From a bacterium (GTDB lineage: Bacteria > JADJOY01), in NCBI GenBank assembly GCA_046331705.1, contig JAXLQJ010000010.1, positions 124,001 to 188,000 of the forward strand: a stretch of 64,000 nt of DNA. Reading direction: 5' to 3'. Position numbers and translations under genes: made by a program. The notes under the pieces were generated by a model. It had not been told where the DNA came from. It did no database searches and saw only the letters and a list, made by a program, of their open reading frames with translations. Positions within the stretch are counted from its first letter, which is position 1. Each line of letters starts with the position of its first letter. Of this stretch, positions 7,528 to 60,654 are shown piece after piece.

Positions 7528-9189
7528 ATGCTGCAACACGTTTCACCCGCCGGGTTCGTCTCGCGATTCGTCGCTCCTGCCCTGGGTACGCTTCCGGTGG
7601 CGGCACTGGCCGGCGGGGTCGCTGCAGGCGCGTGGATGCACGTGTCGCCGTGGCTCTTGATCGCGGGTATCGGCGTGGGCGCGCCCTTGTGTTGGTGGGC
7701 GGCGCGCGCTCGCGGGGCCGCGGGAGCGAGCGACGTTCGCGGTGCCCTCGACCGGCTGGCGAGCGGCGATCTCGCCCATGGGATGCCGAGCCGAGAGGCG
7801 GAGGGCGCCCCGGTCGGGGCCTCGGTGTTGCACGTCGTGGGAAACCTGATCTCCACCATCGGTACCCAGAGTGCCGCGCTGGAAGCGGCGGGTGCCGAGC
7901 TGGCTCGCTCCGCCGGCGCCGTGCACGCCGGTACGACCACCGTGAAGGAGCGGGCGGCGGTCGTCGCCCAGTCGGCGGTGGAGGCCACGGAAAACCTCAC
8001 GACCATCGCGAGCGCGGTCACCGAGCTCGCGGCGACCACCAAATCGATCGCACACAACGTGAGCGATACCGCTCGCGTCGCGCGCGACGCCAAGGTCAAG
8101 ACCGACGCCGCGGAGCGCGTGATCGGTGCGCTCCGCGAGAGCTCGGAGCGAATCGGGCAGGTCACGCAGCTCATCGTCAACATCGCGAAGCAGACCCAGC
8201 TCCTGGCGCTCAACGCGACCATCGAAGCGGCGCGCGCTGGTGAAGCGGGCAAGGGCTTCGCGATCGTCGCCGGCGAGGTGAAGGAGCTCGCCACCCAGAC
8301 GGCGCGGGCGGCGGACGAGATCACCGAGACGATCCAGCACATCCAGCGGGACGCAGCCCAGGCGGTCGCCGCAGTGGCGGAGATCACTCACATCAACGAG
8401 GAGGTCGACTCGCTCGCTCACGGGATCGCCGCGGCAACGGAGGAACAGCACGCGACCGTGCAAGAGCTCGACCGCAGCCTGAATCAGGTCACCGGCTACG
8501 TCGGCGAGGTCGGTGGGTCCATCAACGAGGTGGCGGCGAGCGCCGCCGAGCTCGCCGAGGTCGGTGAGGGCGTGAGCGCGATCCAGCGCGTCGTGCTCGA
8601 CATGGTGAAGGCGACGCGCGCCCTGACGGAGGCGTTTCGCGTGGACGCGGCGGTCGTCTCCGAAGCGGGCGAGTCGATCCCCGCTTCCGCCAAGCTCACG
8701 GCCATCAGCCTCATGCACCTCCAATGGCGCGACAAGCTCCTGCGTGGCGTGCTCTCCGGTGCCGACCCGGGCGTGGCGACGGATCCGACCAAGTGCGCCC
8801 TCGGCCGCTGGCTCGCCTCGGGCGAGCAGCGATCCGAGGCGGTGCGTCATCGGCTCGCCGAGCTCGAGCCGATCCATCGCCGGTTGCACGAGACCGCGAT
8901 CGGCATCCTCGCGGACATGGGAAGAGGTGCCTCGCGCACCGCGTTGCTCGACCGCGTCCACGGCGAGGTGACGCCGGTTCTCACCGCGACCTGGGCCTCG
9001 CTGCGCGGCCTCATCGAGCTTCACGCGGGCCAGCAACCCGGTGGCGCCGGCATGGCGTCGGCGGGGGCTTCGTTCTCGGCGCCCGCGGTGGCGGCGGCGG
9101 CTCCGCTCGAGCCGCGAGGGCGAGTGACGCCTGGCCCGGGCGGCGCGACGAAGTGGAACGCACACCCGTCCGCTCACGTCCACAACTGA
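7528..9189 (+). CDS. Methyl-accepting chemotaxis protein with C-terminal CZB zinc-binding domain
   Basis: [37 protein letters not shown] hairpin tip; HLQW...CALGRW...HRRLH CZB ligands. Confidence 0.88.
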
Positions 9190-9490
9190 CTCGCCACCCG
9201 CTGCCGGCGTCATCGAACGCCGGCTCGACGCCCGGCCGCGTCTCGATCTGGGCGAGCCGGGTCCACGCCAGCTGCGGACGATCCGGTTGCTGTGACTCTG
9301 ATCACACGGCGCACGCATCCTTCGTCGAACGAACGTTCGGTCGCGTGGCGCCGATTCCGTGGTCGGCGCAACGTACGTCGTTGCCACCTCTGTGGGATGG
9401 AGTGCGCTCGGGCCGCGCCCCACACTCAAGCTGCGCAAGCGCGTCTCGGTCCGAGGCAACTCGCCTCGCCGGCGCTTGGAGGAGGGGCGA

Positions 9491-11522
9491 ATGGTGGGAC
9501 GATCGATTCATTCGGGCCGCGCGCGTTCGCATGGTTGGAAGCGCGGTCACCTGGGTGTGCTCGTCGCGATGCTCGCGTCGTTGGCCATCGCAGCGAGCGC
9601 GGCGCACGCTGGGGCACCGAGCACGCCGAAGCGCGTGGGCGCCACCAAGCCCACCATCCGCGTCGGCGCGACGGGCTCGTTCGTCACCAATGACCTCACC
9701 GGCGCGCTCACGCCGTTCGATCTCGCGTACTCGTTGCTGGGACCCGGCGTCACGATCTCGAACGTGACGTTCACGGGGTCACTGGTCGCGGCCGGCACCT
9801 TCGCTGGCGGCGCGGGCATCATCTCGTTTCCGTCCGGCGTGATCCTGAGCTCAGGTAACGTCGCCAACGTCGTGGGCCCGAACGTCACGGACAGCATCTC
9901 GCTCGACAACGGCTTGCCCGGCGATGCGGACCTGAACTCGCTCGTGGGCGGGTACCTGACGCTCGACGCGACGATCCTCGAGTTCGACTTCGTGCCCAAC
10001 GCCTCGACGGTCTTCTTCGAGTACGTGTTCGCGTCGGACGAGTACAACGAGTGGGTCTACACCGGCTTCGACGACGTGTTCGCGTTCTACGTCAACGGTC
10101 AGAACTGCGCGGTCGTCGGTGCGCCGTTGGTGCCGGTCTCGATCGACACCATCAACAACGGCAACCCCTACGGAGGCGGAGGCGGAGTCAACTCGAACCT
10201 CTACCTCAACAACGACCTCGAGGACGGCGGCGGCTCGATCAACACCGAGATGGACGGCCTCACCCAGACGCTGGTGTGCCAGGCGTCCGTGCAGGCCAAT
10301 CAGTCGAACCACATCAAGCTGGCCATCGCCGACACCTCCGATCACGTCTGGGACTCGAACGTCTTCATTCGCGGCGGCAGCTTCTCCACGATCCCGCCGG
10401 AGAGCTGCAACGACGGCACCGACGACGACGGCGACGGGCTCGTGGACTGCGCGGACCCCGATTGCGCGAGCAGCCAGTACTGCCTGCCCTCGTCCACCTG
10501 CGGGGACGGCCAGCTCGACCCGGGCGAGCAATGCGACGACGGCAATCACGACAACGGTGACGGCTGCAGCGCCGCGTGCCAGCTCGAGTTCTGCGGTAAC
10601 GGCGTCCTCGATCCGGGTGAGCAATGCGACCCGGAGATCCCCGGTCCCGGCGACGATTGCCGCCCGGATTGCACGCTCGGCGTGTGCGGGGACGGCATCC
10701 TCGACGAGGAAGAGGACTGCGACGACGGCAACCTCGCCGACGGCGACGGCTGCAGCAGCCAGTGCCGAATCGAGGAGCCGGAGAGCGATTGCGGCAACGG
10801 CTTGGACGACGACAGTGACGGGCTGATCGACTGCTTCGATCCCGATTGCGCCAGCGACCACGACTGCGACGGAGTCGAGCTCTGCTACAACGGCACGGAC
10901 GACGACGGCGACACGCTCGTCGACTGCGCCGATACCGCCGACTGCGCGAGCTTCCCGGCGTGCGCGCCGCCGCCGGTCGAGGTCTGCGACAACAGCCTGG
11001 ATGACGATCAGGACGGTCTCTACGACTGCTTCGACGACGACTGCGCCTCGTTCTGCGTGCACGGACGCGGACGGCGACGGGCCAAGCGCAACCCCGCGTC
11101 GCTCATGTGCGCGGATCCGGCGCTCGACTGCAACGATGGCAATGCCGACGTGGAACCCGGGCGTTGCCGTCGAGGTGCCGGGCAACGGCCTCGACTGCAA
11201 CGCGGCCACCAGCGATTGTCAGGACCTGGACGGCGACGGCTACAACCCGGCGTCGGCCGATTGCGACCACGCCCAGCTCGACTGCAACGATGCCAACGCC
11301 GACGTGAATCCCGGCAAGACCGAGATTCCGAAGAACGGTATCGACGACGACTGCAATCCCGCCACGCCTGGCGCCTGCACGCCCAGGCCTGCGGAGGCGT
11401 CGGTCGGCGCCGGCGCGGCGTCCACGCCGGGGAGCGTGGACCTTGGCCTCTACTTGATTCCGGGTGCCGCCCTCGCGCTCGTGCTACGGCGGGTGAGACG
11501 CATGGCGCGGCCACGCTCGTGA
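9491..11522 (+). CDS. Large secreted protein: choice-of-anchor-L-like N-domain, Cys/Asp-rich repeats, C-terminal TM + Arg tail; frameshifted after ~11050 in this copy
   Basis: Signal peptide; FEYVFASDEYNE, HIKLAIADTSD; repeats CGDGQLDPGEQCDDGN and DDDGDGLVDCADPDC; the duplicate at 14381-15107 shows the intact frame. Confidence 0.75.
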
Positions 11523-11633
11523 AGTAGCGCGCCGCTCGGCCACCGCGAAGCGGCGCGCGCCCCATCGACGCGGAGCCCGTCGGAGCATCGCTCTCGGCGG
11601 CTTCGCTCGCTTCGTCTCGGCCCCGGGCTTTTC
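10807..11633 (+). repeat. Direct repeat copy 1 (~830 bp; 3' end of the secreted-protein gene plus downstream sequence)
   Basis: Aligns with 14381-15220 from CGACGACAG to GGGCTTTTC; carries several small indels relative to copy 2. Confidence 0.95.
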
Positions 11634-11709
11634 GGTAGTGTCCTTAATTTGATTTGACGCGACGCGTTGAGGTATTCCGTGTCGTGATGCCTTATCATGA
11701 GGTGGCATC

Positions 11710-12202
11710 ATGCGATTCACGTTCAACGAGAAGAAGCGTGCGGCGCAGGCTGCCGCCCACGTCCTCCAACGGCACGGCGGGCGGTTCAACTACATGCACC
11801 TGATCAAGGAGCTGTACCTGGCCGACCGCCAGTCCTTGATTGATCGCGGCGTCCTGATCACCGGTGACGCCATGTTCGCCATGAGGCATGGCCCGGTCCT
11901 GAGCAACATTCTCGACGCCGGTTACGGCCGGATGGTGATCGGAATGGCCGAAGATGAGCGAAGAAGTACGCGTCTCGCCAAGGAAGACCACCGCGAGAAG
12001 CCGAGGACGAAGAAGCGCTGCGCGAGGAAGGAACATGAACGCCTGCTGGTCGAGTTACTCCACGAAACGTTGCCCGAGGACAGCCTGGGGCCGAGCTCCA
12101 AGCCCATCGACCCTACAACGACCCGGCGCAACAGGTACAGCGGTGAAGATCGAGCAGGGCTCGGCAGGTTGCCGCCGAGATGGCGTTCTCGACGCGCTCT
12201 AG
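11710..12202 (+). pseudogene. Panacea (DUF4065/SocA-like) antitoxin, frameshifted
   Basis: NYMHLIKELYLADRQSLIDRGVLITGDAMFAMRHGPVLS matches the K-LY-AD...G-ITGD...GPV signature; later LVELLHETLPE...SSKPI; end approximate. Confidence 0.75.
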
Positions 12203-12574
12203 GCCGCCTTCCGCGCGGCGTTGATCCTGTCCTTGAAGTCTCGCGGAATGTGCCGCGACGAGATCGCGCCTTGCGGATCTTGTCCAGCGCTGCGGATGAG
12301 AGCCGTTTCCTGGGCTGGTAGTTCCACAGACCAGTTAGCGTCGTCTGCTGACCCGGATGGAGCGCGCGGTGGTGCTCGTAAACCACCACCGTCTCGTCCT
12401 TGAGCGGCGAATGATCGGCCGCCGTGAGAACGCACGTTGCGTCGAAGCGCCATGTAGGATCGAGCGGCACGACGATCAGTTCCAATCTGGTCGGCCACGA
12501 GAACCGCGCGGAGCCTGATGGCGCCCTTGCCGCCCATGTCGACGAGGAACGTCGCCCGCTTCGAGCTGTCCCAT
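12199..12574 (-). pseudogene. Small hypothetical protein, putative toxin, frameshifted
   Basis: Stitched frames: TFLVDMGG...LIVVP...FDATCVLTAADHSPLKDETVVVY...ALDKIRK...SSRHIPRDFKDRI; resembles small proteins found beside Panacea genes (recollection, not searched). Confidence 0.4.
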
Positions 12575-12588
12575 TCTCCGGGGCTCCA

Positions 12589-13430
12589 TCAGGCAGACAA
12601 CGCGGCGTCGATGAGTTCGCCGATATCCCAGGCCGATGCTGTGACGCCAGCAGCCATCGCCGGAGTCACACCGTCGAGCGAGAGATGGCCGCGCACGTGA
12701 AGTTGTAGTAGCCGAAATGCAATCCAACAGCCGCCTTGAGGTTCTCCAGCTTCTTGCTGAACGCGTTCGTTAACCTCGCGAATCTGCGCATCGACATTCT
12801 CATGGTGAGGTTGCCGCGCTCGACGTGACTCGTGCCGATTTTCGTGCGACGTCCGGATCGCCGATCACCACCGTCTTGCTCGTGCTGATGACCTTGGGCG
12901 GGCTGTACCTACCCGGGCCAATGGGTTCGGCTTCGTAGGCTTTTACGATCTGGCCGTAGTCCACGTCCGCGCCGAACGCCTCCTCCGGGTCGCGTCTACG
13001 TATGCCGCGAGTGCATCGGACGAGAGCTGGATGCGATTCAGTAGGCGCGACGAAAGATCGGTCAGGAACGCCGTCGCGTTCCTCGGAGTCGCGCTTCCCA
13101 TGCGGTAGCTCGGCACCAACTTGCGTCAGGATCGATCGCCACGAACGTCCACTGATCGCCGACGCGGCTCGTGTCGTCGGTCGCCTTCACGTGGCGCTGC
13201 TTCTTGCCGACGTAGCTCCAGATTTCGTCGACCTCGATCCGCTCGCATCCGAGATCTTCACCATCTCGTGATCCAGGAGGCGTTGACAGCCGTCACCGAC
13301 GCGCACCATGAGGCGCAGAATCGTGTCACGATGCACGCCGCTATTGCGCTCGGTGGCGCGGACGCTGGTACCGTCCACGAGGCACCCGATGACCAACTCC
13401 TCGCTCGGACTTGCTCAGCACGTTCGCCAT
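12589..13430 (-). pseudogene. IS1-like DDE transposase, multiple frameshifts
   Basis: N-term MANVLSK...VIGCLVDGTSVRATERNSGVHRDTILRL (HTH); C-term TSHVERGNLTMRMSMRRFARLTNAFSKKLENLKAAVGLHFGYYNF...GVTPAMAAGV...WDIGELI. Confidence 0.8.
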
Positions 13431-13695
13431 CGCCGACCCCATTCGTTAGCGGACGGATAGGACTCTAGCGAATCCCACTGATAGCGTCAGGGGACGTGCG
13501 TTCCTATTGACGTAGCTATTGGATGGTGCGCAGCCTGGGGCCGTGAAGGATGGGAAGCAACGAGGGTGACCTCGGACGGTCCGATACCGGGCTCTACACC
13601 CTACGGGGCCGCTGTCACCGCAGCGGGGTCTGGACCCTCACCCTCCCGCCACATTCCCATGAGTATTCTAGCGCATTTACGGGAGGAATCACACG

Positions 13696-14281
13696 ATGAC
13701 TGACGAAGCCGACCGCAAGAAGAAGCACCGCAGTCCGCTTAATCCGTTCTTAGCTCCGGGAAGCGATCAACTGCGCGGGCGAATTCTACAAGGACCACCG
13801 GACCAATCCGACGTCAATCCAGGCGGCCGCGACTACCTGGGGCCAGGACCCCAAGTCAGGCATTACTGGGGTTGGTGGACGGATCGTGTCAGCGCTCAAG
13901 CAGTTTGGGTTGATGGAGGAGACGGGATGGTGGCGCCACCTGGCGCCTCAAGCTGACCGATCTCGGCCGCTTGCGCTGCTGCCAGAGTCCGATTCGCGAC
14001 GTCCGACGGCCATTCGGGAAGCAGCGCTGAGGCCCAAAATTCACGAGGAATTGGTCAAATACTACCCGGAACGTCTGCCCTCGGATCAGGAGCTGAAAAC
14101 CAGCCTTGAGCTAGATCGAGGATTCAACCCGGACGCGATCCCGGCCTTTATCAAGCAGTTCCGTGATACGTGCGAGTATGCGGCGCTGTATAGCGATGAT
14201 AGACTAACGCCCGCAGCCGACGAATTCGGGGATTTGCTCGCAGAAGAGGGCAATCCGCACATCCGGGAAGCGCCAGGCTAA
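13696..14281 (+). pseudogene. Conserved hypothetical protein (possibly DNA-binding), frameshifted
   Basis: GGAGG RBS before ATG 13696; KKHRSP... then SALKQFGLME...AIREAALRPKIHEEL...LPSDQEL...DRGFNPDA...FIKQFRDT in other frames. Confidence 0.5.
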
Positions 14282-14380
14282 GCTTGGGGGTGAGGATCCA
14301 ATGACGACGGCCGGAACGCCGCCAGCGGGCGCGCTCGAAACTCCGCCTTTGACCAGTGAGGCGTGGCAGAACCTCACGTT

Positions 14381-15220
14381 CGACGACAGCGACGGGCTGA
14401 TCGACTGCTTCGATCCCGATTGCGCCAGCGACCACGATTGCGACGGAGTCGAGCTCTGCTACAACGGCACGGACGACGACGGCGACACGCTCGTCGACTG
14501 CGCCGATACCGCCGACTGCGCGAGCTTCCCGGCGTGCGCGCCGCCGCCGGTCGAGGTCTGCGACAACAGCCTGGATGACGATCAGGACGGTCTCTACGAC
14601 TGCTTCGACGACGACTGCGCCTCGTTCCCTGCGTGCGTGTGCACGGACGCGGACGGCGACGGCTACGGCAACCCCGCGTCGCTCATGTGCGCGGATCCGG
14701 CGCTCGACTGCAACGATGGCAATGCCGACGTGAACCCGGGCGCCGTCGAGGTGCCGGGCAACGGCCTCGACGACGACTGCAACGCGGCCACCAGCGATTG
14801 TCAGGACCTGGACGGCGACGGCTACGGGAACCCGGCGTCGGCCGATTGCGACCACGCCCAGCTCGACTGCAACGATGCCAACGGCGACGTGAATCCCGGC
14901 AAGACCGAGATCCCGAAGAACGGTATCGACGACGACTGCAATCCCGCCACGCCTGGCGCCTGCACGCCCAGGCTCGCGGAAGCGTCGGTCGGCACGGGCG
15001 CGGCGTCCACGCCGGGGAGCGTGGACCTCGGGCTCTACTTGATTCCGGGTGCCGCCCTCGCGCTCGTGCTACGGCGGGTGAGACGCATGGCGCGGCCACG
15101 CTCGTGAAGTAGCGCGCCGCTCGGCCACCGCGAAGCGGCGCGCGCCCCATCGACGCGGAGCCCGTCGGGAGCATCGCTCTCGGCGGGCTTCGCTCGTTTC
15201 GTCCGGCCCCGGGGCTTTTC
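14381..15220 (+). repeat. Direct repeat copy 2; in-frame 3' fragment (to stop at 15107) of the secreted Cys-rich gene
   Basis: Matches 10807-11633; open frame with CTDADGDGYG...DCNDGNADVNPGAVEVPGNGLDDDC repeats and a TM/Arg tail. Confidence 0.95.
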
Positions 15221-48793: not shown

Positions 48794-49609
48794 GTGGATC
48801 TCGACGACGCGACGCGTTTCTCGGGCTGGCTCGACACGTCGACCACCATCGTCGCGCCCGATGCGGCGGCGCTCGCCGAGCGCGCCGCGCGCGAGGTGCT
48901 GGCGGACGCGCGCGCGGCGATCGACGCGCGCGGGCAGTTCACCTGGGTGCTCTCCGGCGGCAGCACGCCCCGCCGGCTCTACGCCCGCCTCGCCGCGCCG
49001 CCGTTTCGCGAGCAGATGCCGTGGGACCACACGCACGTCTTCTGGGGCGACGAGCGACACGTGCCGCCCGCGCACCCCGAGAGCGATTACGGCATGGCGT
49101 TCGAGGCGCTGCTCTCCAAGGTCCCGATCCCCGAGGCTCAGGTCCATCGAATCGAGGCCGAGCTCGCGGACGCGGCCGAGGCCGCGCGCCGCTACGAGGC
49201 CACCGTGCGCGCGGCGTTCCAGGCGCTGGGACAGCCGCTCGACCCGGTGCCGAGCTTCGACCTGGTGCTGCTCGGTCTGGGCGCGGACGGCCACACGGCC
49301 TCGCTCTTCCCCGGCTCGGCGGCGATCCAGGAGACCCGCAGCTGGGTCGCCGCGCCCTACGTCGAGAAATTCCGCACCCACCGCATCACCCTCACGCCCA
49401 CGCTCTTCAACGCGGCCCGCCACGTGGTGTTCCTGGTGAGCGGCTCCGACAAGGCCGATGCGGTACACACGACCCAGCGCGGTCGCACCGATCCGCGCTG
49501 GCACCCCGCGCAAGCGATCCGCCCCAGCCACGGGCGACTGACCTGGCTCGTCGACGCCGGCGCCGCGGCGCGGCTCGCGACCTCCGAGCCCGGCGCCACC
49601 TCCGCCTGA
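48794..49609 (+). CDS. pgl: 6-phosphogluconolactonase
   Basis: LSGGSTP, FWGDERHVP, LLGLGADGHTASLFP, RITLT. Confidence 0.93.
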   Translation: MDLDDATRFSGWLDTSTTIVAPDAAALAERAAREVLADARAAIDARGQFTWVLSGGSTPRRLYARLAAPPFREQMPWDHTHVFWGDERHVPPAHPESDYGMAFEALLSKVPIPEAQVHRIEAELADAAEAARRYEATVRAAFQALGQPLDPVPSFDLVLLGLGADGHTASLFPGSAAIQETRSWVAAPYVEKFRTHRITLTPTLFNAARHVVFLVSGSDKADAVHTTQRGRTDPRWHPAQAIRPSHGRLTWLVDAGAAARLATSEPGATSA

Positions 49610-49892: not shown

Positions 49893-50219
49893 ATGAGCAA
49901 ACCGACTCAGATCACGACCGAGGGAATCGGACTCCAAGAGCTGATCCAGCAGCTTCGGGCCGATCTCTCGCGAGCCATGAAGGACGGGGAGAACGCGGAC
50001 CTGCGCTTCGAGCTGCAAGCCATCGACCTCGAGCTGCAAGTGGTCGTGACGAAAGAGGACGGGGGCCAGATCGGCTTCAAGATCCTTCCTTTCAGCGGCA
50101 CGGCCACCGACAAGCTCGACCGCAAGGTGACGCAGACGATCAAGCTCAAGCTGGCGCCGTCCGCCGACAGCTCGAAGCTGGTCTCGGACGTGCGGGATCT
50201 GCCTCTGGAGAGCCAGTGA
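49893..50219 (+). CDS. Trypco2-like (trypsin co-occurring) small protein
   Basis: GGAGG RBS; IGLQELIQQLRADL...LRFELQAIDLELQVVV...GGQIGFKI...QTIKLKLAP; directly upstream of a trypsin-like gene. Confidence 0.8.
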   Translation: MSKPTQITTEGIGLQELIQQLRADLSRAMKDGENADLRFELQAIDLELQVVVTKEDGGQIGFKILPFSGTATDKLDRKVTQTIKLKLAPSADSSKLVSDVRDLPLESQ

Positions 50220-50266
50220 CGACTGTCGAGAACGCCGCTGCGTCACCTTCAATCTGAGCGGCTGCC

Positions 50267-51687
50267 ATGTCTAACTGGGACCGGCGATTTGCCGTCGCGA
50301 TCAGCGTCGAGCTGACCTCGGGCAAATCGTCTGTCGGGTCTGGCTACGCCATCGCGCCGAATCTCATCCTGACTGCGCGACACGTTGCTCGGCCGGCGAA
50401 GGCCAAGGCAGACGCCACGCCGTACGTGCATCTCGTGAATCTCGATCGAAGCAAGCATCCGGCACGACTGCGTTGGGCGCCGACCACCGACGAGGACATT
50501 GCGCTCCTCGAGGTCGAGCATGTCATCGATGAGAAGCTGACCCCTGGTCGATCCTGGCCGCCCACCCGCTCGACGCTGTGGGTAACTGGCAAGCAGAGGG
50601 CTTTCCCGCGCTGCGATCGACAGCGAGGACCCGCTCGCCCCGCACCGTTCGAGGGACGAATTCATCCATCGGTCCCGAGACGTCCGCAGCTGCTCCTCGA
50701 TGGCGTCGTTGCCCGAGAACCGGGACGATTGGGGCGGCATGTCTGGTGCCGGTGTTTTCGTCGAGGCACGCCTCGTTGGGGTGGTGAAGCGCATCCCACC
50801 TGGGAAGATGCGCAATCGCAACCTCGCGGCTACTCCTATCCTGGTTTCTCGGCGACTCCGAGTTTCGAGCGATTCTCGGCGATCCCGGAGCGGGCCGGCT
50901 GGCACAGCTCGAGCGTGAGGTGATCCGAATCCTCCAGCATGACGACCCTGCTCGCGCAGAGCTCGCCGCGCTGCTCGGCCTCGACGCAGCTTCACCGCTG
51001 GACGACGTGGCGAGGCGGGTTCTCGCGGATCGTCGGGCGGACACCGTGCTCTTCACCCTGGCCAAGGCCGCGCGACGCTCTCGCAATTCGGTGCATCCGG
51101 CGGTGGGGCCGGCCCGTACCGCCGCTTGCTCGGCGTGGTGTTGCCTCACTGCGTCGACTGGGACGGAGTCGCGCGGGCCCTCGACCGGTGGTTGCTAGAC
51201 GGCAGTGCGTCCAAGGACCTGATCGTGGTGCCCGTAGCCACGTGTGCCATCGCCGAGGTCTTGATGGCGCGTGCCCGAGGACAGCGGCAGACTTCGTTGC
51301 GACGAATGAGAGCGTCGTCGGTAGCACGGCGATCTGGGTGCGACGCAAGCCCGGCATGGATCAAGACGGTCTACTGACGAACAAGGAATTGGTCGAGGCT
51401 CGCGGCAAGCTACTTCAAGCAGAGGCGCCCACGTTCGACGCACCCGAAAGAAAGTGACCGACGCCCTCAGCATGCTCAAGCGACTATCGCCTGAGGCTCA
51501 GCCCTACTTCGTCGTGGATCCAGACGGCGATGGGAATGCTCGTGGTGAAGAGGTGAACGGTCTCGCGAAGCGCGTGAAGAGCGTGCTCACGCCATTCGTG
51601 GTCCTGGCGCTGAGCCCTCACGTGGGCGACGACACTGCCGAGGGCGGGCTCGAGTTCGCGATTCGTGAGATCATCGGCGATCACTGA
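50267..51687 (+). pseudogene. Trypsin-like serine peptidase fused to a putative VMAP-like C-terminal region; several frameshifts
   Basis: GSGYAIAPNLILTARHV (H), DEDIALLEV (D), WGGMSGAGVF...LVGVV (S) in different frames; position before MoxR. Confidence 0.7.
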
Positions 51688-51704
51688 CGCGAGGGCGAAG
51701 GATC

Positions 51705-52694
51705 ATGGCCAAGGACTTCCTCGAATGCACGGAGGGGACGCGGATCGATCTGCCCGCTCACGGCGCACTCCCGGCTGCGGTGCACGTGTTCGATGCCGAA
51801 TCGGTGCATGCCATCAATGCGGCACTCGCCGCAGAACGGCCACTGCTGGTCCGTGGTGAACCGGGCACCGGGAAGAGTCAGCTCGCGCGCGCCGCCGCCG
51901 TGGCGCTCAAGGGGGGATACAGGTCGAAGGTGATCGATGCCCGCACCGAGGTCCAGGATCTGTTCTTCACGTTCGACGCAGTGGCACGGCTTGCGGAAGC
52001 GCAGCTCCAGGGCGCGCTTCGCAGTGCCAAGCTCCAAGTCCAGCGCCGAGCGGCTCGACGAGCAGAACTTTCTCGCCCCCGGTCCGCTTTGGTGGGGCTT
52101 CGACTGGGCTTCTGCGGATCAACAAGCCCGCCGCGTGGGCGCCCATCGCCCGCCGTCACCGAACGACGCCACCGCAGCGCGAGCCGTGGTGCTGCTCGAT
52201 GAGATCGACAAGGCCGACAGCTCGGTCCCAAACGGGCTCTCGAAGCCCTCGGGAACGGTGAGTTCACGGTTCCTCGGCCGCGGCGGCAAGCCGATCCGTC
52301 TCGAGCGCGAGCGTGCTCCGCTCGTGGTCGTCACGACGAACGAGGAGCGCTCGCTTCCCGACGCCTTTCCTCCGTCGCTGTCTCGTGCTCCAGATCCGCT
52401 TGGCCGAGTCGCCGGCGGAGCTCGTGGAGTGGTTGGTGAAACGGGGAAAGGCCCATTTCCCCGCCATGACGGAGCCCATCCTTCGCGAGGCCGCGGAACT
52501 CCTCGTGAAGGAGCGTGGTGATCAAGAAGCGCTCGGGTTGTGCCCCCGGTCAGGCGGAGTACCTGGATCTGGTGCGAGATTCTCGAGCGACTTGCGGCAA
52601 CGAAGCGTGGTGACCGTGCCAAGGCACAGAGGAAGCTGCTCAACGACGTGAAGCGATTCGCGCTGCGCAAGCACCCGACGAGGTCGCGGTGTAG
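51705..52694 (+). pseudogene. MoxR-family AAA+ ATPase, frameshifted
   Basis: AINAALAAERPLLVRGEPGTGKSQLARA, VVLLDEIDKAD, PLVVVTTNEERSLPDAF, LRRCLV; end approximate. Confidence 0.85.
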
Positions 52695-55600
52695 GCCGTG
52701 GCGCGCCGGACCGCAAAGCGTCGTCGCACCAGCCATGGCGCGCGGCGCCGCTCTCACGCGCGAACCTCCGTCGGTCTTGCGGATCTTCTGCTCCGCGCTC
52801 CATTCCAACGCCCAGCGCGATTGGCCGAGCGTTGCGGCGCTGCTCGAGTACGAGCTGGTGGAGCCAGCGATTGCACCGCGAGGTCGCATGCCGCGGCGTC
52901 CGCGCGCGTCCTCGGTCGACGAGGCGGAAACGAGCCTCCCCAGCAGCGAGCTTCCTGCGTCACCGCTTCGGCTCACTCCATTCTGGCGCGCCGAAGAGAT
53001 CACCGTACGACCCGACCGCCCGAAACGTCGCCGAGACCCGCTGCCCCCTGGAGTCCGGCCTCTAACGCGCGCAGAGCGCCGAGGCGAGCAAGCGCTCGAG
53101 ACAAGCCCGACTAGCCCGCCTGCAGTGCCGTTACGCGCGTGGCCAACGCTTCTGAGCTGGAGCGGCGCCTCGCGGGGCGCTCCCATGGTCGTCAGATCGA
53201 CATCGAGACTCTGGTTCGTGCTTGGTACCGCGGCCAAGTGGTGTCGCGCATTCCGTATCGCACCCGCCGTGCGTGGCCGGGGCGGTTCACCCTCATCTTT
53301 GACAGGAGCCATCGGCTGCGACCCTTCTGGAGGATGAAGACCGCGTCGAGGATGGGTCCCTGCGGGCGTGCGGCCCGAACAGGATCAGCGAGTCCTTCAG
53401 ACCCGATGGCACGCGCCTCGTGCTCGACAGGGAAAACCGTCCGAAACGGCTCGTCGTACGCGATGACCTGAGCGACGGTCCGATCCTCGCGCTCACAGAT
53501 CTCGGGATCTATGGGGATTCCAGCACCCGAACTTCCTGGCTTCGTGAGGGAGAGCTTCGGCGGCGAAACGGCCAGGCTCTGGTTGCGCTTGTGCCATGCC
53601 CCACGGAGCGCTGGCCGCGGCGGCTCACGAATCCCTGGCACGGCGTGGCTTGGGAAGCGGTACGGCCGGCACCCCCACCGAGGCAACACGTAGCGCGCGC
53701 ATCCGCGAGCGACCCAGACACACTCGAGGTTCGTGCTGAGCGCCTCATGCGTCTGTTGGCGCACGCCGAGTGGATTGAGCCGGGGCTCATGCGCGCAGTC
53801 CGTAGGCTATTGCCTGCGGCGGACGCCGACGTGGGGACGGAGGCCGACGTTTGGGGTGGGACACCTGGCCCCAGCGTGGAGATTCCACCGGCGCTCCGAG
53901 TGAGGCTGCGCCAGGAATTTGCGAACGAGCCCGAGGCGCTCCGCCGCGCGGTACTGGAGCAAATTTCGCTCTGGCATTCCTCACTGCCTCCGGAGGTCTG
54001 GTGTGCCGAATGGTGGGCACTCGACCGGGAGAGCAAGCGCCTCGTGCCGGGCCAGGACGCTGTGCGGGCGCGGAACATGGCGTGGCGATTTCTGGCCACG
54101 CTGCCTTCTCCGCACGTGGATGCCGCCGGCAAGACCGCCGTCGCGCGCTGGCTCCGCTCGTGCGAGGAGGCTTGGCGCTCTGTGCTGCCCGAGGACCCAC
54201 AGCTCCGCGAATCACTTGGCCGTGCGTGGCTCCTTCTTCATCATGGTGACACGCGGACGATGGCACCAGCGGGCGTCGAGCTAGAGCTGGCTCGACGATC
54301 TCCTCCGGATCGGAGCGTCGGCGCGTGACCTCGATGTGGCATGACGGCCAGTTCCTGCGCTGCCTGGATTCAGGCGTCTCGCACCGCACGGCGCCGCGCG
54401 GAGCTTCGTCGCACGCGTGCGGCTCGTGCAGCCTGGACTCCAGGTTGAGTCCGTAACCCGGGCGGAACGAGCCCAGGTCGATCTCGAGCAGAAAGCGCAA
54501 CTCGAGCTTTCACCAAGCTCGTCGGTCATCCTCCACACCGATCGCACACGGCTGCGGCTCGGGATCTTCGAGCGTCCTGAGTGGGCGGCCGCCGTGGGGC
54601 GCGATCGCTTCGGGCTGTGGGCGGAGATCGAGGTGAAGGGCGTGCGTCTTCGGCTGCGATGGATTCCGCCGGGGCGGTTCTGGATGGGACCGCAGAAGAT
54701 GAGCCGGGAAGGCTCCCGCGGAACACCGCCGGCAGGTCACGGTCACCCACGGCTTCTGGCTCGGGGAAACCCCGTGCACACAGGATCTGTGGCAAGCGGT
54801 GATGAACGCGAATCCCGGCATGTTCAGGTCCGACCCGTCCGGTGGAGCAAGTGAGCTGGAACGGATTGCCAGCGCTTCTTCGAGCGGCTTGCGCAGCACG
54901 TGCCGGATCTGACGCTTGTGCCGTCCGAGCGGAGTGGGAATACGCCTGTCGCGCCGGCACCGAGTCCGCGACGTACGCCGGCGATCTCGACATCGCGGTG
55001 AGAACCACGCCCCCGTGCTCGACGGAATCGCCTGGTACGCGGGGAACAGCGGGATCGGCTTCGAGCTGGAAAACGGCTACGACTCTTCGACCTGGAGCGA
55101 GAAGCAGCACGCGCACTCGCGCGCAGGCACGCATCCGGTGGGCCAGAAGCCAACGCATGGGGCCTTCGCGACATGCTCGGCAACGTTTTCGAGTGGTGCG
55201 CCGACCGCTTCGACACGGAAGGGTCGGTGCTGCCACATCCGGAGGGAATTCCGCCGAGCGACCTCCGCGTCGCACGTGGTGGTTCCTGCGGTTCGCGTGC
55301 GCTCGAGGTCCGCGCGGCGTTTCGCTACGCACGCGCCAGCGAGGCGACCAACGGCGACCTGGGGTTTCGCCTCGCGGCGCGGCTCGAGGCAGTTCCGAGT
55401 CTGATCCCCTCTCGCACCCAGTTACTTGCGGAGTTTGGTGCGCCCGACGACATCGATTGGGCACGTGACCTTGGGCGCGATCGGTTTGGGTTGTGGGCGG
55501 AGATCGAGGTGAAGGGCGTTCGTCATCGGCTGCGATGGATTCCGCCGGGGCGGTTCTGGATGGGCTCACCCGAAGGCGAGGCTGGGCGGTGGGAGGACGA

Positions 55601-56147
55601 AGGACCGCGGCATCTGGTCACGTTGAGCCGTGGCTTCTGGCTCGGGGAGACCCCGTGTACGCAGGCGCTGTGGGAAGCGGTGACGGGCAAGAACCCAAGC
55701 GAGTTCAAGAGCCCGACGCGTCCCGTGGAGCAGGTGAGCTGGAACGATTGCCAGAGGTTCCTCGCGCGCCTCGATGAAGCCGTGCCGGGGTTCGTGCCAC
55801 GACTTCCCTCGGAGGCGGAGTGGGAGTACGCGTGCCGCGCCGGAACCGAGACCGCCACCTACGCCGGTGATCTCGAGATCCTCGGTGAGCGGAACGCGCC
55901 CCTGCTGGACCCGATCGCCTGGTACGGCGGAAACAGTGGAAAGGGCTTCGATCTGAAGAAGGGCTTCGACTCCTCCGATTGGCCGGAGAAGCAGTACGAC
56001 CACCGCCGAGCAGGTACGCGGCCCGTGGGCGAGAAGGCGCCCAATCCATGGGGGCTTCGCGACATGCTCGGGAACGTCTACGAGTGGTGCAGCGACGGGT
56101 ACGGGCCGTACGCTCCGGGTGCGGTGCAAGACCCCGCAGGACCTGCC

Positions 56148-56274
56148 GAGGGCTCGCTTCGCGTGCTCCGTGGCGGCTCTTGGCTCTCGCACGCTGAGTA
56201 CGTGCGTGCGGCGCACCGGATCAGGGGCGGGCCGGACGCTCGCGACGGCTACCTTGGCTTCCGCCTTGCCCGAG
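56148..56274 (+). repeat. DGR variable repeat VR1
   Basis: Colinear with TR over 127 nt; 17 mismatches, 16 at TR adenines. Confidence 0.96.
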
Positions 56275-56362
56275 GTCAGGGTGCGCCAGGCCAGGAAAGC
56301 GAGCGTGCCGGAGGGGGCGCGGCGCGGGCCGGCCAGGCGGGGACCGCCGTCGGCCCGGCCCG
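56275..56362 (+). promoter_or_regulatory. Putative IMH (GTCAGGGTGCGCCA) and downstream hairpin for VR1
   Basis: 14-mer shared with the VR2 flank but not with TR; GGCGG-GGA-CCGCC stem-loop at 56336-56348. Confidence 0.65.
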
Positions 56363-56519
56363 AAGCACGCGACCCCAAGGCGTAAGCCAAGGAGCGGGTG
56401 TCACGAAGACGCGCGCATCGTCCAAGCGGAAGCAATAGGCTCATGGCCAGACCACGCGCGGCCCTTGGCCGCGCGTCGCGCATTTTTCGCGAAGCTCACG
56501 AGTGGGAGCCGCCGTGCGT

Positions 56520-57014
56520 ATGCGCTTCTTCACGATTCCCGTCTTCGCCGACGACACTGCCGCGAACGAGCTCAACGGGTTCCTCGCCTCCCGTCGCGTG
56601 CTTTCGATCGATCGCCGGCTGATCGACGACGGCCCGGGGAGTGCTTGGGCCGTGTGCGTCACCTACCTCGACGCGACGAGCGGCGCGGCACCGATCAAGA
56701 AGGGCAAAGTCGACTACAAAGAGGTGCTTTCCGACGGCGATTTCGCAGTGTTCGTGCGCCTGCGCGCACTTCGGAAGAGCTTGGCCGAGCGCGATGCCGT
56801 ACCCGCCTACGCCATCTTCACGAACGAGCAGCTCGCCGCGATGGTCGAGCGGTGAGTGAGCACGGCGGCCGACATCGAGTCGATTGAAGGTGTCGGCAAG
56901 TCGCGGGTGGAGAAGTACGGCGCCGCGTTCCTCGAGATCCTGTGCTCCGCGGACCTCGCCGCGGCGCCAGCCGCCCTGACGGCCACCACCACCACCACCA
57001 CCGCCGCCGAGTAG
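56520..57014 (+). CDS. HRDC-domain DGR accessory protein, interrupted by an in-frame TGA at 56853-56855
   Basis: FVRLRALRKSLAERDAVPAYAIFTNEQLAAMVER*VSTAADIESIEGVGKSRVEKYGAAFLEIL reads through as a full HRDC motif; ends 7 bp before the RT. Confidence 0.85.
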
Positions 57015-57021
57015 GCCGCCG

Positions 57022-58032
57022 ATGCCGAGGCGCAGCGCGGTCAGCCTCGGCGAGATCGCATCGTTCGAGAATCTGGCAGCGGCGTTCTGGCGCGCCGCCC
57101 GAGGCAAACGCCACCGGCTGGAGGTGCGCCGCTTCGAGGCGCAACTGGAGCACGAGCTGGCGGCCCTCGCCGCCGAGATCGTCTCGCTTCGTGTGCCGGT
57201 CGGGCGGTTTCACGTGTTCCAGGTCTTCGACCCGAAGCCGCGCCTGATTCACGCGCCGGCCTTTCGCGAGCGTGTGCTGCACCACGCCATGATGCGGCCG
57301 ATGGAGCCCGTGCTCGATCGCTCGTTGGTCGACGACACGTTCGCGTGTCGCACGGGGAAAGGCACCTTGGCCGCCGTCGAGCGCGCGCAACACCATCTCA
57401 GACGCTTCTCGTGGTACGCGAAGCTCGATGTGAGGCGCTACTTCGCCAGTGTCGATCATGCGGTTCTTCGAGCGCTTCTCGAGCGCCGCTTCAAGGACCC
57501 GGGGCTTCTGGCACTTTGCGCCCGTGTGATCGATGCGCACCACGCGGCACCCGGGAAGGGCCTGCCCATCGGTGCGCTCACGTCGCAGCACTTCGCCAAT
57601 CTCTACCTCGCATCGCTCGACCGATTCCTCTTGGAGGAGCAGCGCGTGGCCGGGCTGGTGCGCTACATGGACGACGTGGCGTGGTGGTGCGAGACCAAGG
57701 AACACGCTCGCGAATCGCTTCGAAACGCGGTCCAGTTGCTGCGCGAGCGACTACTGCTCGAGGTTCACCCCAACGCACGCGTTCAGCGCAGCTCGCACGG
57801 GCTCTCGTTCCTGGGTTTCCGCGTGCGGCGGGGCGCGTTGCTGCTTTCTCGGCGGCGGCGTGTGCGTTACCGGGCCGCTCGGCAACGCTGGGAAGAGGCG
57901 TTCCGCCTCGGCCTGGTCGAGGCCCGGACCCTCCAGGCTGGCTATGCCTCCGCGCTCGCGATCACGCTCCACGCCGAGAGCCGGGGCTGGCGCCGGGCGG
58001 AGCTGGTGCTCCATCCGCCGCTGGACGCGTGA
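57022..58032 (+). CDS. DGR reverse transcriptase
   Basis: KPRLIHAPAFRERVLHHA, ACRTGKGT, KLDVRRYFASVDH, GLPIGALTSQHFANLYL, RYMDD, FLGF; 336 aa with no maturase or endonuclease extension. Confidence 0.96.
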   Translation: MPRRSAVSLGEIASFENLAAAFWRAARGKRHRLEVRRFEAQLEHELAALAAEIVSLRVPVGRFHVFQVFDPKPRLIHAPAFRERVLHHAMMRPMEPVLDRSLVDDTFACRTGKGTLAAVERAQHHLRRFSWYAKLDVRRYFASVDHAVLRALLERRFKDPGLLALCARVIDAHHAAPGKGLPIGALTSQHFANLYLASLDRFLLEEQRVAGLVRYMDDVAWWCETKEHARESLRNAVQLLRERLLLEVHPNARVQRSSHGLSFLGFRVRRGALLLSRRRRVRYRAARQRWEEAFRLGLVEARTLQAGYASALAITLHAESRGWRRAELVLHPPLDA

Positions 58033-58069
58033 GCGGCAGCTGGGTAGAAGGTCGGTGGACGAGAGTCAC

Positions 58070-58196
58070 GAGGGCTCGAATCGCGTGATCCGTGGCGGCT
58101 CTTGGAACTCGAACGCTGAGAACGTGCGTGCGGCGAACCGGAACTGGAACGAGCCGGACGATCGCAACGACAACCTTGGCTTCCGCCTTGCCCGAG
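58070..58196 (+). ncRNA. DGR template repeat (TR)
   Basis: 8 AAC + 1 AAT codons in the target frame (EGSNRVIRGGSWNSNAENVRAANRNWNEPDDRNDNLGFRLAR); 26 adenines; 37 bp after the RT stop. Confidence 0.96.
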
Positions 58197-58365
58197 CGCA
58201 CGAGCGGGCCGTGGTGCCCGCCCCTGACCCGACTCTCGTCCAGCCCGTCGGTGGGAACGCCGGCGGCAAACAGCAAGCGGGCGCCAGCGTGCCCGTAGCA
58301 CGGCGGATGCCGCGTCGAGCGCTCGCTGGCCGCCCACCCTTCGTTTTGTGCAGCGGACGGTCGTG

Positions 58366-59495
58366 ATGGCGGCGGCCTTCGCTTCTCACCCGCTCGAGAC
58401 GGGCGTGCCGCCGTCGTGGGCGTGCGAGTGGGGGGACGATCGCTACGGAGTGTGGGCGGGATTCGCGGTGGGCGAGGTCACGCACCGGCTGCGCTGGATC
58501 CGACCCGGGACGTTCTGGATGGGCTCGCCAAAGGGCGAAGCGGGGCGGTGGCCGGACGAGGGACCGCGTCATCGTGTGACGATCCGCAGCGGGTTCTGGC
58601 TGGGTGAGATGCCGTGTACCCAGGCGCTCTGGGAAGCGGTGATGGGTGAGAACCCGAGCAGATTCCAGAGCCCTACGCGCCCCGTGGAGCGCGTGAGCTG
58701 GAGCGATTGCCAGGCGTTCCTCGCTCGCCTCGGCGAGCGCGTTCCGGAGCTTAAGCCGCGGCTGCCCACCGAGGCCGAATGGGAGTACGCGTGCCGCGCC
58801 GGGACCACGACCAGCACCTATGCAGGCGAGCTGGTGATTCGCGGCGACAACGACGGCCCGGTGCTGGATGCCATCGCCTGGTACGGCGGCAACAGCGGTG
58901 TGGGATTCGAGTTGGCCGAAGCAGAGGACTCCTCGAAGTGGCCGAAGAAGCAGCACCCGCACAAGAAGGCGGGGACTCGGCCCGTGGGCTTGAAGGCACC
59001 GAATCCGTGGGGCCTCTGCGACATGCTCGGAAACGTTTGGGAATGGTGCGGCGATTGGTTTGGTGACTACGCCCCCGCAGCAGTGACCGATCCGACAGGA
59101 CCGGCCGAGGGCTCGGATCGCGTGTTCCGTGGCGGCTCTTGGGGCTCGTACGCGCGGAGCGTGCGTGCGGCGTACCGGGACTGGTACGGGCCGGCGTTCG
59201 CATCGACTACCTTGGCTTCCGCCTTGCCCGAGGTCAGGGTGCGCCAAGCGAGGCCGCGGTAGCGGCCAGCCAGACCGGTGCGAGCGAGCGCGGGTTGGCG
59301 AGGCGGGGACCGCCGAGCAAGACCCGCGGCGAGCGAGTGAAGCAAGAGCGAGTGCCTGCCGGCGCGGGGCGCGCCCCGCGCCGGTTTCGAAATTTTTTGC
59401 CGGGGATCGTGCCTTTCGATCCCACGGTGCTGGCTCTCACAGTTCCGGGCGCGCCGCTGAGCTCGAGTGAGCTCACCGCGCGACATCCCGCGTGA
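58366..59495 (+). CDS. DGR target 2: stand-alone FGE-sulfatase (CLec-fold) protein; a 1-nt deletion in VR2 gives a stop at 59262 as written, corrected frame ends at 59495
   Basis: WIRPGTFWMGSP, PVERVSW, RLPTEAEWEYACRAG, NPWGLCDMLGNVWEWC, RVFRGGSW; YLGFRLARG appears in the shifted frame. Confidence 0.85.
59107..59232 (+). repeat. DGR variable repeat VR2
   Basis: Colinear with TR; 16 substitutions, 14 at TR adenines, plus one 1-nt deletion at a TR adenine. Confidence 0.95.
59233..59328 (+). promoter_or_regulatory. Putative IMH (GTCAGGGTGCGCCA) and downstream hairpins for VR2
   Basis: Same 14-mer as after VR1; GGCCGC-GGTA-GCGGCC at 59252-59267; GGCGG-GGA-CCGCC at 59302-59314. Confidence 0.65.
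59359..59398 (+). terminator. Perfect 26-bp GC palindrome followed by a T-rich tract; possible intrinsic terminator at the island end
   Basis: CCGGCGCGGGGCGCGCCCCGCGCCGG then TTTCGAAATTTTTT. Confidence 0.55.
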
Positions 59496-59712
59496 CTTGG
59501 CCTCGGACACCGCGCCACGCCCGCCGGGCGGGGGAAGAGGGCCGTCGAGGGACCGACGGCCCGCCAGTCGATCTGTGCAGCACGGTCTCGACGCTCAGCC
59601 TTCCACCTCTTCGCGCGTGGGCGCTTCGCTGCGAGCGGCTGTAACGCTTGCGGCGCTCGGTGGACCGAACCTGGGGCGATTGCCGCGGCCCCGGCACGGG
59701 TGGAGCGAAACG

Positions 59713-59967
59713 ATGCGTTGTGTCGACGTCACCGAGCTGGTCACCGAATACGTCGAGGGGCGCATGCCCCTCGGCGAGCGCTTGCGATTCCAGCTCCACC
59801 TCGGTGCGTGCGGGCATTGCCGCGCCTATCTGGCGCAGATGCGCCAGACGGTTCGCGCGCTCGAGCGCGTCGCGCCGGCGCCCATGCCGCAGGACGTCCG
59901 CGCCGAGCTCGAGCGCCGCTTTCGCGATTGGTCGCGGACCAAGCCCTCGGACGGCGAAGCCGAGTGA
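59713..59967 (+). CDS. Zinc-finger (zf-HC2) anti-sigma factor-like protein
   Basis: MRC...ELVTEYVEG...HLGACGHCRAY (HxxxCxxC). Confidence 0.85.
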   Translation: MRCVDVTELVTEYVEGRMPLGERLRFQLHLGACGHCRAYLAQMRQTVRALERVAPAPMPQDVRAELERRFRDWSRTKPSDGEAE

Positions 59968-60069
59968 AACGCTTTCGCGCGATCCGCGACTGATAGCCGT
60001 GAGCCGCGGCACCGGGTGGCACCGACGATGGGGTCGGACACGCGGCGCGCGACGGCTCGAGAGGAAGCC

Positions 60070-60654
60070 ATGACTCACGCACACGCCACCGTCGCCACCG
60101 CCGCCGCCGTGAACCTCGCCATGCCCATCGCGGAGACTCCGATGTCCACCGATGCCAAGCCGTCGAATTTTCTGCGCTCGGCCATCGCCAAAGGCGAGGC
60201 ACTCTACGGTGTGTTCACGCGGGTCGCGGACCTCCTGCCGCACCCCGTGCTGGCGATCCTGCGCGGGTATTGGGGCTACCAGTTCTTCCAGACCGGCAAG
60301 GGCAAGCTGATGGATCTGGCTTCCGTCACCGACTTCTTCGCTTCGCTCGGCATCCCGGCGCCCCATCTCAACGCCATGATGGCGGGCGCGACCGAGTGCG
60401 TGGGCGGGCTCTTGCTCTTGGTGGGGCTGGGATCGCGGCTCGTTTCGGTGCCGCTTTCCATCACGATGCTGGTCGCGTACGCGACCGCGCATCGCGAGGC
60501 GTTGCTCGGCATCTTCGGCGATCCCGACACGTTCTTGCAGCAGGAGCCGTTCTTGTTCCTGCTCACCGCGGTGTTGGTGCTCGCGTTCGGGCCGGGTGCC
60601 TTCTCGCTCGACGCGCTCGTGAAGAAGCTCGTCCAGAAACGTCGCGCCGCGTGA
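60070..60654 (+). CDS. DoxX-family membrane protein
   Basis: FFQTGKGKL, FFASLGIPAP, ECVGGLLLLVGLGSRL, FGPGAFSLD. Confidence 0.88.
   Translation: MTHAHATVATAAAVNLAMPIAETPMSTDAKPSNFLRSAIAKGEALYGVFTRVADLLPHPVLAILRGYWGYQFFQTGKGKLMDLASVTDFFASLGIPAPHLNAMMAGATECVGGLLLLVGLGSRLVSVPLSITMLVAYATAHREALLGIFGDPDTFLQQEPFLFLLTAVLVLAFGPGAFSLDALVKKLVQKRRAA

Follow-up and report, generated by a model that had tools for sequence, protein, structure and literature searches.

We analysed a 64,000-nt stretch of the bacterial contig JAXLQJ010000010.1 (the window throughout this text), in which the region from 49.9 to 59.3 kb combines a diversity-generating retroelement (DGR) with a MoxR-centred module of the conflict type. 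All genes of this locus lie co-directionally on the + strand. The series opens with a Trypco2 adaptor gene (49893..50219; ~108 aa, open), followed by an effector gene encoding a trypsin-like head on a conserved C-terminal module of ~320 aa (the C-module; 50267..51687), a MoxR-like AAA+ ATPase gene (51705..52734, its end uncertain) and a large gene (52735..56438) for a protein of ~1,230 aa with two C-type-lectin-fold (CLec) domains, which we call X-FGS, or X, and regard as the candidate sensor. Downstream of X come an HRDC-type accessory gene (56520..57014; ~164 codons), the gene for the DGR reverse transcriptase (RT; 57022..58032), the non-coding template repeat (TR; 58069..58196) and a second target gene for a free CLec protein of ~300 aa (58348..59262). 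Variable repeats are found at the C-terminal end of the second CLec domain of X (VR1; 56147..56274) and in the free CLec protein (VR2; 59106..59232). A preliminary description of this DNA had named the same gene order on one strand, which Pfam searches of the window translations bore out, together with the HRDC-type DGR, the tandem CLec domains and the extra free CLec target, all of which are present. NCBIfam searches of the window proteins gave sub-threshold matches only and nothing beyond Pfam.

The presence of a DGR is certain. The TR is 128 nt long, contains 26 adenines and starts 37 nt past the RT stop codon, directly after the RT gene. VR1 is 87% identical to it, and 16 of the 17 mismatches fall at TR adenines (binomial P 1.2e-10, with the 26 adenines among 128 TR bases as background). 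VR2 is one base shorter than the TR and differs by 16 substitutions and a 1-nt deletion, with 14 of the 16 substitutions at TR adenines (P 1.6e-8) and the missing base at TR A58158 (window 59194-59195). In the register of the VRs, 25 of the 26 TR adenines occupy the first or second position of a codon, and 21 are altered in one or both repeats; one difference in VR1 and two in VR2 lie at bases other than adenine. The TR has no match in the first CLec domain of X. Hairpins 3' of VR1 and VR2 were no stronger than in shuffled sequences (z -0.55 and -1.10). Contigs from public metagenomes that cross the VRs carried 17-18 mismatches, in a kind of data in which rare variants are lost.

The RT reading frame is open over 336 aa (RVT_1, E 2.3e-14) and contains the motifs IGALTSQ and YMDD, which we take to be hallmarks of DGR RTs; its identity to RTs downstream of X in other loci was 44-60% in 21 loci and 36% for one further RT (L069; numbers with L denote our loci). 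The accessory gene matched HRDC (E 1.1e-7) on the part that precedes an in-frame TGA at 56853-56855. Continued in a single frame through this TGA, it shows homology from end to end with HRDC genes of ~160 aa in related loci, with 50-53% identity across 143-148 aa for those of L063, L011, L015 and L016. These four homologues have K or R at the position of the TGA. The TGA, which lies in a short GTGA-GTGA repeat, may be an erroneous base, a genuine nonsense mutation or a site of read-through. Just 5' of the RT start, a run of CCA/CCG triplets (56974-57016) encodes the Thr/Ala-rich tail of the accessory protein, and it was left out of the contig placement described below as a repeat. Accessory genes of the HRDC type mark a known minority DGR architecture (14 of 372 in the survey of Wu et al. 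2018, PMC5758913).

Both VR-bearing domains have the C-type-lectin fold. FGE-sulfatase was matched twice within 55002-56438 of the large gene (Pfam, E 3e-58) and once in the free target (E 1.8e-43, Pfam on the translation of 58228-59262), and the free target shares 70% identity with the second CLec domain of X across 260 aa. The large gene itself comprises an N-region of ~550 aa that belongs to no known family, followed by the two FGE-sulfatase/CLec domains (~54387-55388 and ~55455-56339). No signal peptide was evident at the N-terminus of either target when the translations were read by eye, with no predictor run, and both targets appear to be cytoplasmic.

To place X in a family, its open piece at 53303-54328 (341 aa) was compared by phmmer with 1.84 billion cluster representatives, which returned 528 relatives at E<=1e-3, 256 of which also passed E<=1e-10. 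The best match was 38% identical, so no close orthologue is present in the library. In each of the 25 relatives scanned, a single protein combines an N-region of ~600 aa without a Pfam family with one to three FGE-sulfatase domains. Loci were collected from genomes (9) and, with a five-sequence alignment, from metagenomes (74); 76 of them had a tblastn match to the sensor piece and fell into 59 clusters at 95% nucleotide identity. MoxR was found directly upstream of X in 44 of 47 assessable clusters (52 of 60 assessable raw loci), and a DGR RT downstream on the same strand in 11 of 25 (14 of 31 raw loci), with an HRDC homologue in 21 of 21 RT-positive loci. Trypco2 was found upstream by tblastn in 8 of 35 assessable clusters (9 of 44 raw loci), which is an undercount, as Pfam found Trypco2 in L011 and L062, both missed by tblastn. 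The CLec gene is therefore syntenic with the MoxR operon, as the preliminary description had presumed, and the N-region and CLec domains are fused in every relative scanned. The suggestion that the combination may be an undescribed variant did not hold, since five metagenome loci (L011, L014, L015, L062 and L063) share the complete order of the window, with tandem CLec domains in X and a free CLec gene behind the RT, and the layout is already in print in Doré et al. 2024 (PNAS, PMC10907252). A metagenome scan with the single window piece gave no close relative, so that no intact copy from the same species was obtained.

Some of these loci depart from the common order. In L063 the target after the RT (8375-9997) is a TIR_2 and FGE-sulfatase fusion of 540 aa in an otherwise identical locus, which implies that the second target can itself bear an effector head. 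In L007/L045, L012, L027 and L041 an HRDC homologue and a free CLec gene come after the sensor gene, with no RT in the available sequence; these may be remnants, or DGRs with the RT elsewhere.

The Trypco2 protein matched PF19631 over all of its model positions (1-78 of 78, E 3.5e-23), and the gene lies directly 5' of the protease gene in the window and upstream of the effector gene in nine homologous loci (Pfam), L010 having Trypco1 instead. The N-terminal half of the effector matched Trypsin_2 just above the cut-off (27.7 bits vs 27.6; E 5.2e-6), and the motifs TARHV, DIALL and GMSGAG are visible, presumably representing the H, D and S of the protease catalytic triad. Across the loci, the proteins encoded between Trypco and MoxR are 460-940 aa long and their N-terminal domain varies, being trypsin-like in 13, TIR in 3, metallophosphatase in 2, PNP_UDP_1 with PRTase-CE in 1 (L034:658-3483), TCAD9 in 1 (L006:5963-8275) and of no family in 6. 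A hidden Markov model (HMM) built from the trypsin-headed set nevertheless recognised the last ~320 aa of proteins with TIR, phosphatase, PNP or TCAD9 heads (E 1e-11 to 7e-4 for the whole protein), missing one TIR protein (L069) and L009. A library search with the L011 C-module returned 26 relatives whose precomputed Pfam families were Trypsin_2 and TIR_2 only, and two TIR-headed relatives were 54-55% identical to it in the module. From these comparisons we conclude that the effector partner carries interchangeable heads on a shared tail of ~320 aa. The segment 50788-51198 had no homologues among longer proteins at E<=1e-3, and a search of the ESM Atlas with an effector C-module gave no usable match.

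For the MoxR gene, AAA_5 was matched at 26 bits against a cut-off of 22 (E 1e-5) whereas bpMoxR, with a cut-off of 27 bits, scored 23.8. The translation shows Walker A (GEPGTGKS) and Walker B (LLDEID), and identity to the MoxR genes of related loci was 50-63%. One of these loci encodes a MoxR protein with an N-terminal extension of ~170 aa (L015:4911-6320). A complex prediction for the N-region of the L011 sensor (560 aa) with the effector C-module (314 aa), made without controls, scored 0.00 and speaks neither for nor against binding.

Three genes of the module do not read through in one frame. HMMs of intact homologues were compared with the three forward frames (frame being the first codon base mod 3), and this mapping was used in place of a GC3 frame plot, which is unreliable in the island, its first codon positions being as GC-rich as its third positions. 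At least 16 frame changes were located within 50.3-55.2 kb, in the effector, MoxR and large genes, and 0 within 55.2-59.1 kb. The effector gene, broken at least five times, covers positions 2-495 of a 514-position HMM of 15 intact homologues while passing through frames 2-1-0-1-0-1; the MoxR gene, broken at least four times, covers positions 3-320 of 322 of an HMM of 20 homologues in frames 0-1-2-0-1; and the large gene, broken at least seven times before 55.2 kb, covers positions 16-887 of 925 of its family HMM in frames 1-0-2-0-1-2-1-0, with the second FGE-sulfatase (FGS) domain then in frame 0. Each broken gene is thus colinear with its family over nearly the full length, and a stop-free path is present across 54300-54350.

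Independent data for these breaks came from public metagenomes. Of 24 public runs listed, all of them sludge, wastewater, digester or unspecified metagenomes, 20 from 13 studies contain part of the stretch, and the fullest has only 63% of its 31-mers. Short-read contigs of four runs from four studies were aligned to the window, their depth figures and uncovered bins being left aside as evidence. Within 50.2-54.6 kb, where the fourth run gave short pieces only, the pieces from three runs of three studies comprised 787 letters on 777 nt (3 mismatches, 10 gaps), 880 letters on 875 nt (8 mismatches, 15 gaps), 1129 letters on 1127 nt (4 mismatches, 6 gaps), 726 letters on 719 nt (3 mismatches, 7 gaps) and 265 letters on 264 nt (1 mismatch, 9 gaps), whereas from 56.2 kb on the pieces listed had 0-3 gaps. 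Gaps thus exceed substitutions by about 3:1, which is unlike divergence, and for this reason we read the breaks as consensus errors. In three runs, every contig that covers 53328 has an extra G behind it, exactly at a frame change; with this G the translation reads R-P-F-W-E-D-E-D, which fits the family consensus PFWxDQ. The indel-level evidence amounts to 12 of 54 indel rows, and we thus do not claim the repair of every break. In the second target, one contig has one extra letter within 58623-59236, and in all four runs GA is added behind 59252; with both changes the frame would end at the stop codon 59260-59262. The end at 59495 given in the preliminary description follows a shifted frame, and this stop codon is the likelier true end of the gene. 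We consider it likely that the frame breaks are indel errors of the assembly, and the operon is probably intact in the organism.

The preliminary description had also labelled the large gene vWA-like and had expected vWA and VMAP folds in the repaired proteins, and neither expectation was borne out: no vWA family was recovered by Pfam, profile-profile or fold comparison, and intact homologues contained no vWA or VMAP family. In particular, there were no vWA families in ~35 X proteins and no VMAP families in ~30 intact effector homologues (both at E<=0.01-0.001), nor any VMAP family in the 26 precomputed effector relatives. VMAP-C (PF20028) was absent from the source genome and from five genomes with X loci, which is weak evidence because control genomes gave no match either; that search stood at 0 of 5 genomes and then gave one weak sub-threshold match in 81 genomes of one class. 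An hhalign comparison of the alpha/beta region of X with 15 VWA_2 domains of the same genome, gave a probability of 0.07%, equal to that for phosphoribosyltransferases; the target alignments were small, and a very remote relationship may have escaped them. PADLOC had no model that matched X or Trypco2.

To examine the fold of X, AlphaFold2 models were made of a full-length relative (pLDDT 88.9, pTM 0.82) and of the L011 N-region (pLDDT 89.1, pTM 0.83). In the full-length model the CLec domain matched TvpA (2y3c, E 1.4e-18, TM 0.74 on target) and formylglycine-generating enzymes. The N-region matched no PDB fold at E<=1e-3 in Foldseek; its best local matches were phosphoribosyltransferases (prob 0.97-0.99, TM 0.36-0.40 on target), followed more weakly by the vWA domain of NorD in the NorQ-NorD complex (9qh8_G; E 0.049, prob 0.84, TM 0.30), and its profile found PDB sequences at chance level only (E 0.52 and 1.4). 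The modelled N-region consists of a Rossmann-like alpha/beta domain, a helical domain and a beta-domain. Elements of the alpha/beta domain follow the order beta-alpha-beta-beta-beta-alpha-beta-alpha-beta-alpha, with D-R-S conserved behind the first strand and D-L-G behind the fourth; at the corresponding positions vWA domains have DxSxS and TDG. In these models, then, the N-region bears a resemblance, and only that, to a vWA domain with a degenerate metal site.

The whole of the 49.9-59.3 kb locus looks like one horizontally acquired island, to judge from a GC content of 0.64-0.69 against 0.70-0.73 in the flanks and from the distribution of the sensor piece, which was matched in the source genome alone among 41 genomes searched and is absent from those of the same genus (four) and the same family (one). 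Within the source genome there were no paralogues of the effector, the X N-region, the HRDC gene, the RT or Trypco2; relatives consisted of one distant MoxR (on C6) and many FGE-sulfatase genes.

Based on these data, we are moderately confident that the locus unites in one island an HRDC-type DGR and a three-gene, MoxR-centred module of the conflict type, to be read as sensor, MoxR and effector. The DGR rewrites, at template adenines, the last ~128 nt of the CLec domains of two proteins, the large one and the free protein of ~300 aa, and the hypervariable CLec domain would serve as the sensor of a ligand, or antigen. Ligand binding might then be relayed through the N-region of X and the MoxR ATPase, working as relay or gate, to the effector protein, and the Trypco2-controlled protease, once released, would act on cellular or invader targets, probably in an abortive or suicidal response. 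We regard this course of events, from ligand binding by CLec through MoxR relay or gating to the Trypco2-controlled protease as effector, as reasonably probable, and the motifs are consistent with active sites in the protease (H, D, S), in MoxR (Walker A and B) and in the RT (YMDD). The idea of sensor, transducer and effector in the preliminary description is a model already published by Doré et al. 2024 (PMC10907252), who propose, in their account of such loci, that the diversified protein is the sensor.

Several points weigh against this reading. Both function and signal direction are, for the family as a whole, what we infer from sequence, and in the proposal of Kaur et al. 2020, as summarised in PMC10907252, the signal runs the other way, from VMAP as sensor. 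A nearby RT is missing from 14 of 25 assessable clusters, and of five genomes whose X locus has none, two have a DGR-type RT elsewhere and three gave none with the query used, so diversification is not obligatory for the module. If the TGA in the accessory gene and the deletion in VR2 are real, the DGR or the second target would be impaired in this organism. The aligned contigs may stem from sister strains with intact genes while this population holds a decayed copy, and the confinement of the breaks to 50.3-55.2 kb, sparing the DGR core, is what a pseudogene would predict as well. The latter points bear on a rival account in which the island is decayed and the effector, MoxR and sensor genes are true frameshifted pseudogenes, from which the DGR core and possibly a truncated CLec reading frame of 421 aa (55173-56438) survive. 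Besides the clustering of the breaks upstream of an open 55.2-59.1 kb, it can draw on the ATG-initiated frame that covers the VR1-bearing CLec domain and on the 'degenerate' DGR loci, with missing or pseudogenised machinery, that Doré et al. 2024 (PMC10907252) describe in one genome. We nevertheless judge decay improbable. Independent contigs, ~99% identical to the window when gaps are set aside, have indels in exactly this region, at about three gaps per substitution; the G behind 53328 restores a motif conserved in the family; the broken genes are colinear with their HMMs over nearly their whole length, with MoxR still 50-63% identical to its relatives; and a duplicated gene elsewhere in the window has a further frame break.

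Two other accounts accept intact genes and differ in what the proteins are. The locus could be a canonical VMAP ternary system, in which the X N-region is a divergent vWA domain with a degenerate metal-ion-dependent adhesion site and the effector C-module a divergent VMAP. This fits the position of X immediately behind the gene of a MoxR-type ATPase, a kind of enzyme that usually partners vWA proteins (Kaur et al. 2020, PMC7159879), the order of secondary-structure elements with D-R-S and D-L-G in place of DxSxS and TDG, the weak Foldseek matches to the NorD vWA, and the effector design, which shares with VMAP the logic of a variable head on a constant tail. It remains unlikely in our view, given that Pfam found neither vWA nor VMAP, PF20028 was not recovered, hhalign gave 0.07%, no PDB match reached E<=1e-3 and phosphoribosyltransferases outscored vWA; passages of Doré et al. 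(PMC10907252) on such loci likewise report no vWA or VMAP. It is possible instead, and we put this forward tentatively, that the X N-region and the effector C-module are independent inventions, forming a separate, unnamed MoxR-centred ternary system, and not divergent forms of vWA and VMAP. The remaining account is non-immune and would have the locus diversify ligand binding within the cell or at its envelope, for adhesion, signalling or nutrient sensing, with MoxR as a maturation chaperone for CLec and the protease as a processing enzyme. Proteins of the FGE-sulfatase fold do serve in many non-immune roles (the sub-threshold NCBIfam matches included PvdO, GldK and EgtB), and the failure of PADLOC to match X and Trypco2 is in keeping with it. 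Against this stand the heads swapped on one C-module (TIR, trypsin-like and metallophosphatase), which are typical of defence and cell-death systems, the similarity of the trypsin-like protease to the protease regions of Avs1b and LmuA, and the absence of the island from the same-genus and same-family genomes searched together with its GC content below that of the flanks, both typical of variable defence islands. We therefore consider a non-immune role very improbable and retain the sensor, MoxR and effector reading.

If the system is a separate one, it would be widespread (528 cluster representatives), slightly fewer than half of its assessable loci having an HRDC-type DGR in cis, and the logic of variable sensor, AAA+ transducer and swappable effector would have arisen at least twice around MoxR ATPases. 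In any case the 'domain-less' sensors form a large family that is tightly linked to MoxR, and their N-region combines high-confidence models with no significant neighbour among solved structures. For genome scanning, the locus suggests that a seemingly decayed operon may be an assembly artefact, and that independent public reads can show this.

As for the surroundings of the island, the 5' flank is a 6-phosphogluconolactonase gene with its end at 49609. Directly 3', at 59461-60654, lie two open reading frames (ORFs) that, on reading the translation by eye, resemble a zf-HC2-like anti-sigma factor and a DoxX-like membrane protein. No integrase or tRNA gene was noticed at the borders, where no tRNA scan was made. 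Elsewhere in the window, the C-terminal part of a Cys/Asp-rich repeat protein occurs twice (9359-11527 and 14301-15107), on either side of an insert of ~2.7 kb. The first copy has a frame change near 11.0 kb, and the insert contains broken ORFs, one starting MRFTFNEKK at 11710. The arrangement from 9359 to 15107 looks like a duplication or insertion with further indel damage.

Among described systems, the layout closest to ours is that which Doré et al. 2024 (PMC10907252), in the passages relevant here, commonly associate with RT clade 5A: MoxR lies immediately 5' of a target with a domain-less N-terminal extension in place of vWA, a short CLec-only target is also present, and Trypco1/2 genes with TIR or peptidase effectors are adjacent. 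By layout the window resembles such loci, for example DGR 8 of Thiohalocapsa PB-PSB1, in having MoxR 5' of a long domain-less target, a short CLec target and genes for Trypco2 and a trypsin-like protein, and on this published account the layout is of an already described kind and not new. It differs in that the Thiohalocapsa locus has a helix-turn-helix gene where the window has the effector protein (PMC10907252), and in the large target of the window, whose two CLec domains stand in tandem, with a match to the TR in the last one only. The HRDC accessory gene has 0 occurrences in the main text of Doré et al., a count that leaves the figures of the supplementary information aside.

The VMAP ternary systems (vWA-MoxR-VMAP), which were defined by Kaur et al. 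2020 (eLife, PMC7159879) along with the pairing of Trypco and trypsin and with DGR-diversified FGS fusions, share with the window, as far as the sections on these systems go, a three-gene logic around MoxR, a variable effector head on a constant tail and another component that is FGS-fused and DGR-diversified. A Trypco1/2 gene paired with a trypsin-like effector and a MoxR-like AAA+ gene in the operon are further points of likeness. Unlike them, the window system has no vWA, VMAP-M or VMAP-C detectable by Pfam or fold search (hhalign being directed at vWA only), and its sensor N-region and effector C-module belong to families without a Pfam model. We therefore describe the locus as analogous to a VMAP ternary system, membership not being shown. 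With NorQ-NorD it shares an AAA_5/MoxR-type ATPase adjoining a partner gene whose alpha/beta domain is weakly similar in fold to the NorD vWA; unlike NorQ-NorD, it has no context of metal-enzyme maturation, and the likeness in fold is not significant (E and TM as given above).

TvpA, the best PDB match of the CLec domain of the X family, is a lipoprotein-type surface target and has, to our knowledge, no MoxR or effector partners. The targets in the window are, unlike TvpA, seemingly cytoplasmic and placed inside a conflict-type operon. What the window shares with the TvpA DGR of Treponema denticola (HRDC-type, 'architecture C' in the corresponding section of Wu et al. 2018, PMC5758913) is the use of an HRDC accessory gene and not Avd. 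Viewed by analogy, DGR-diversified CLec sensors joined to AAA+ transducers and death effectors may be the closest bacterial counterpart of anticipatory antigen receptors, and the present locus would be an added member of that group, from an activated-sludge bacterium.

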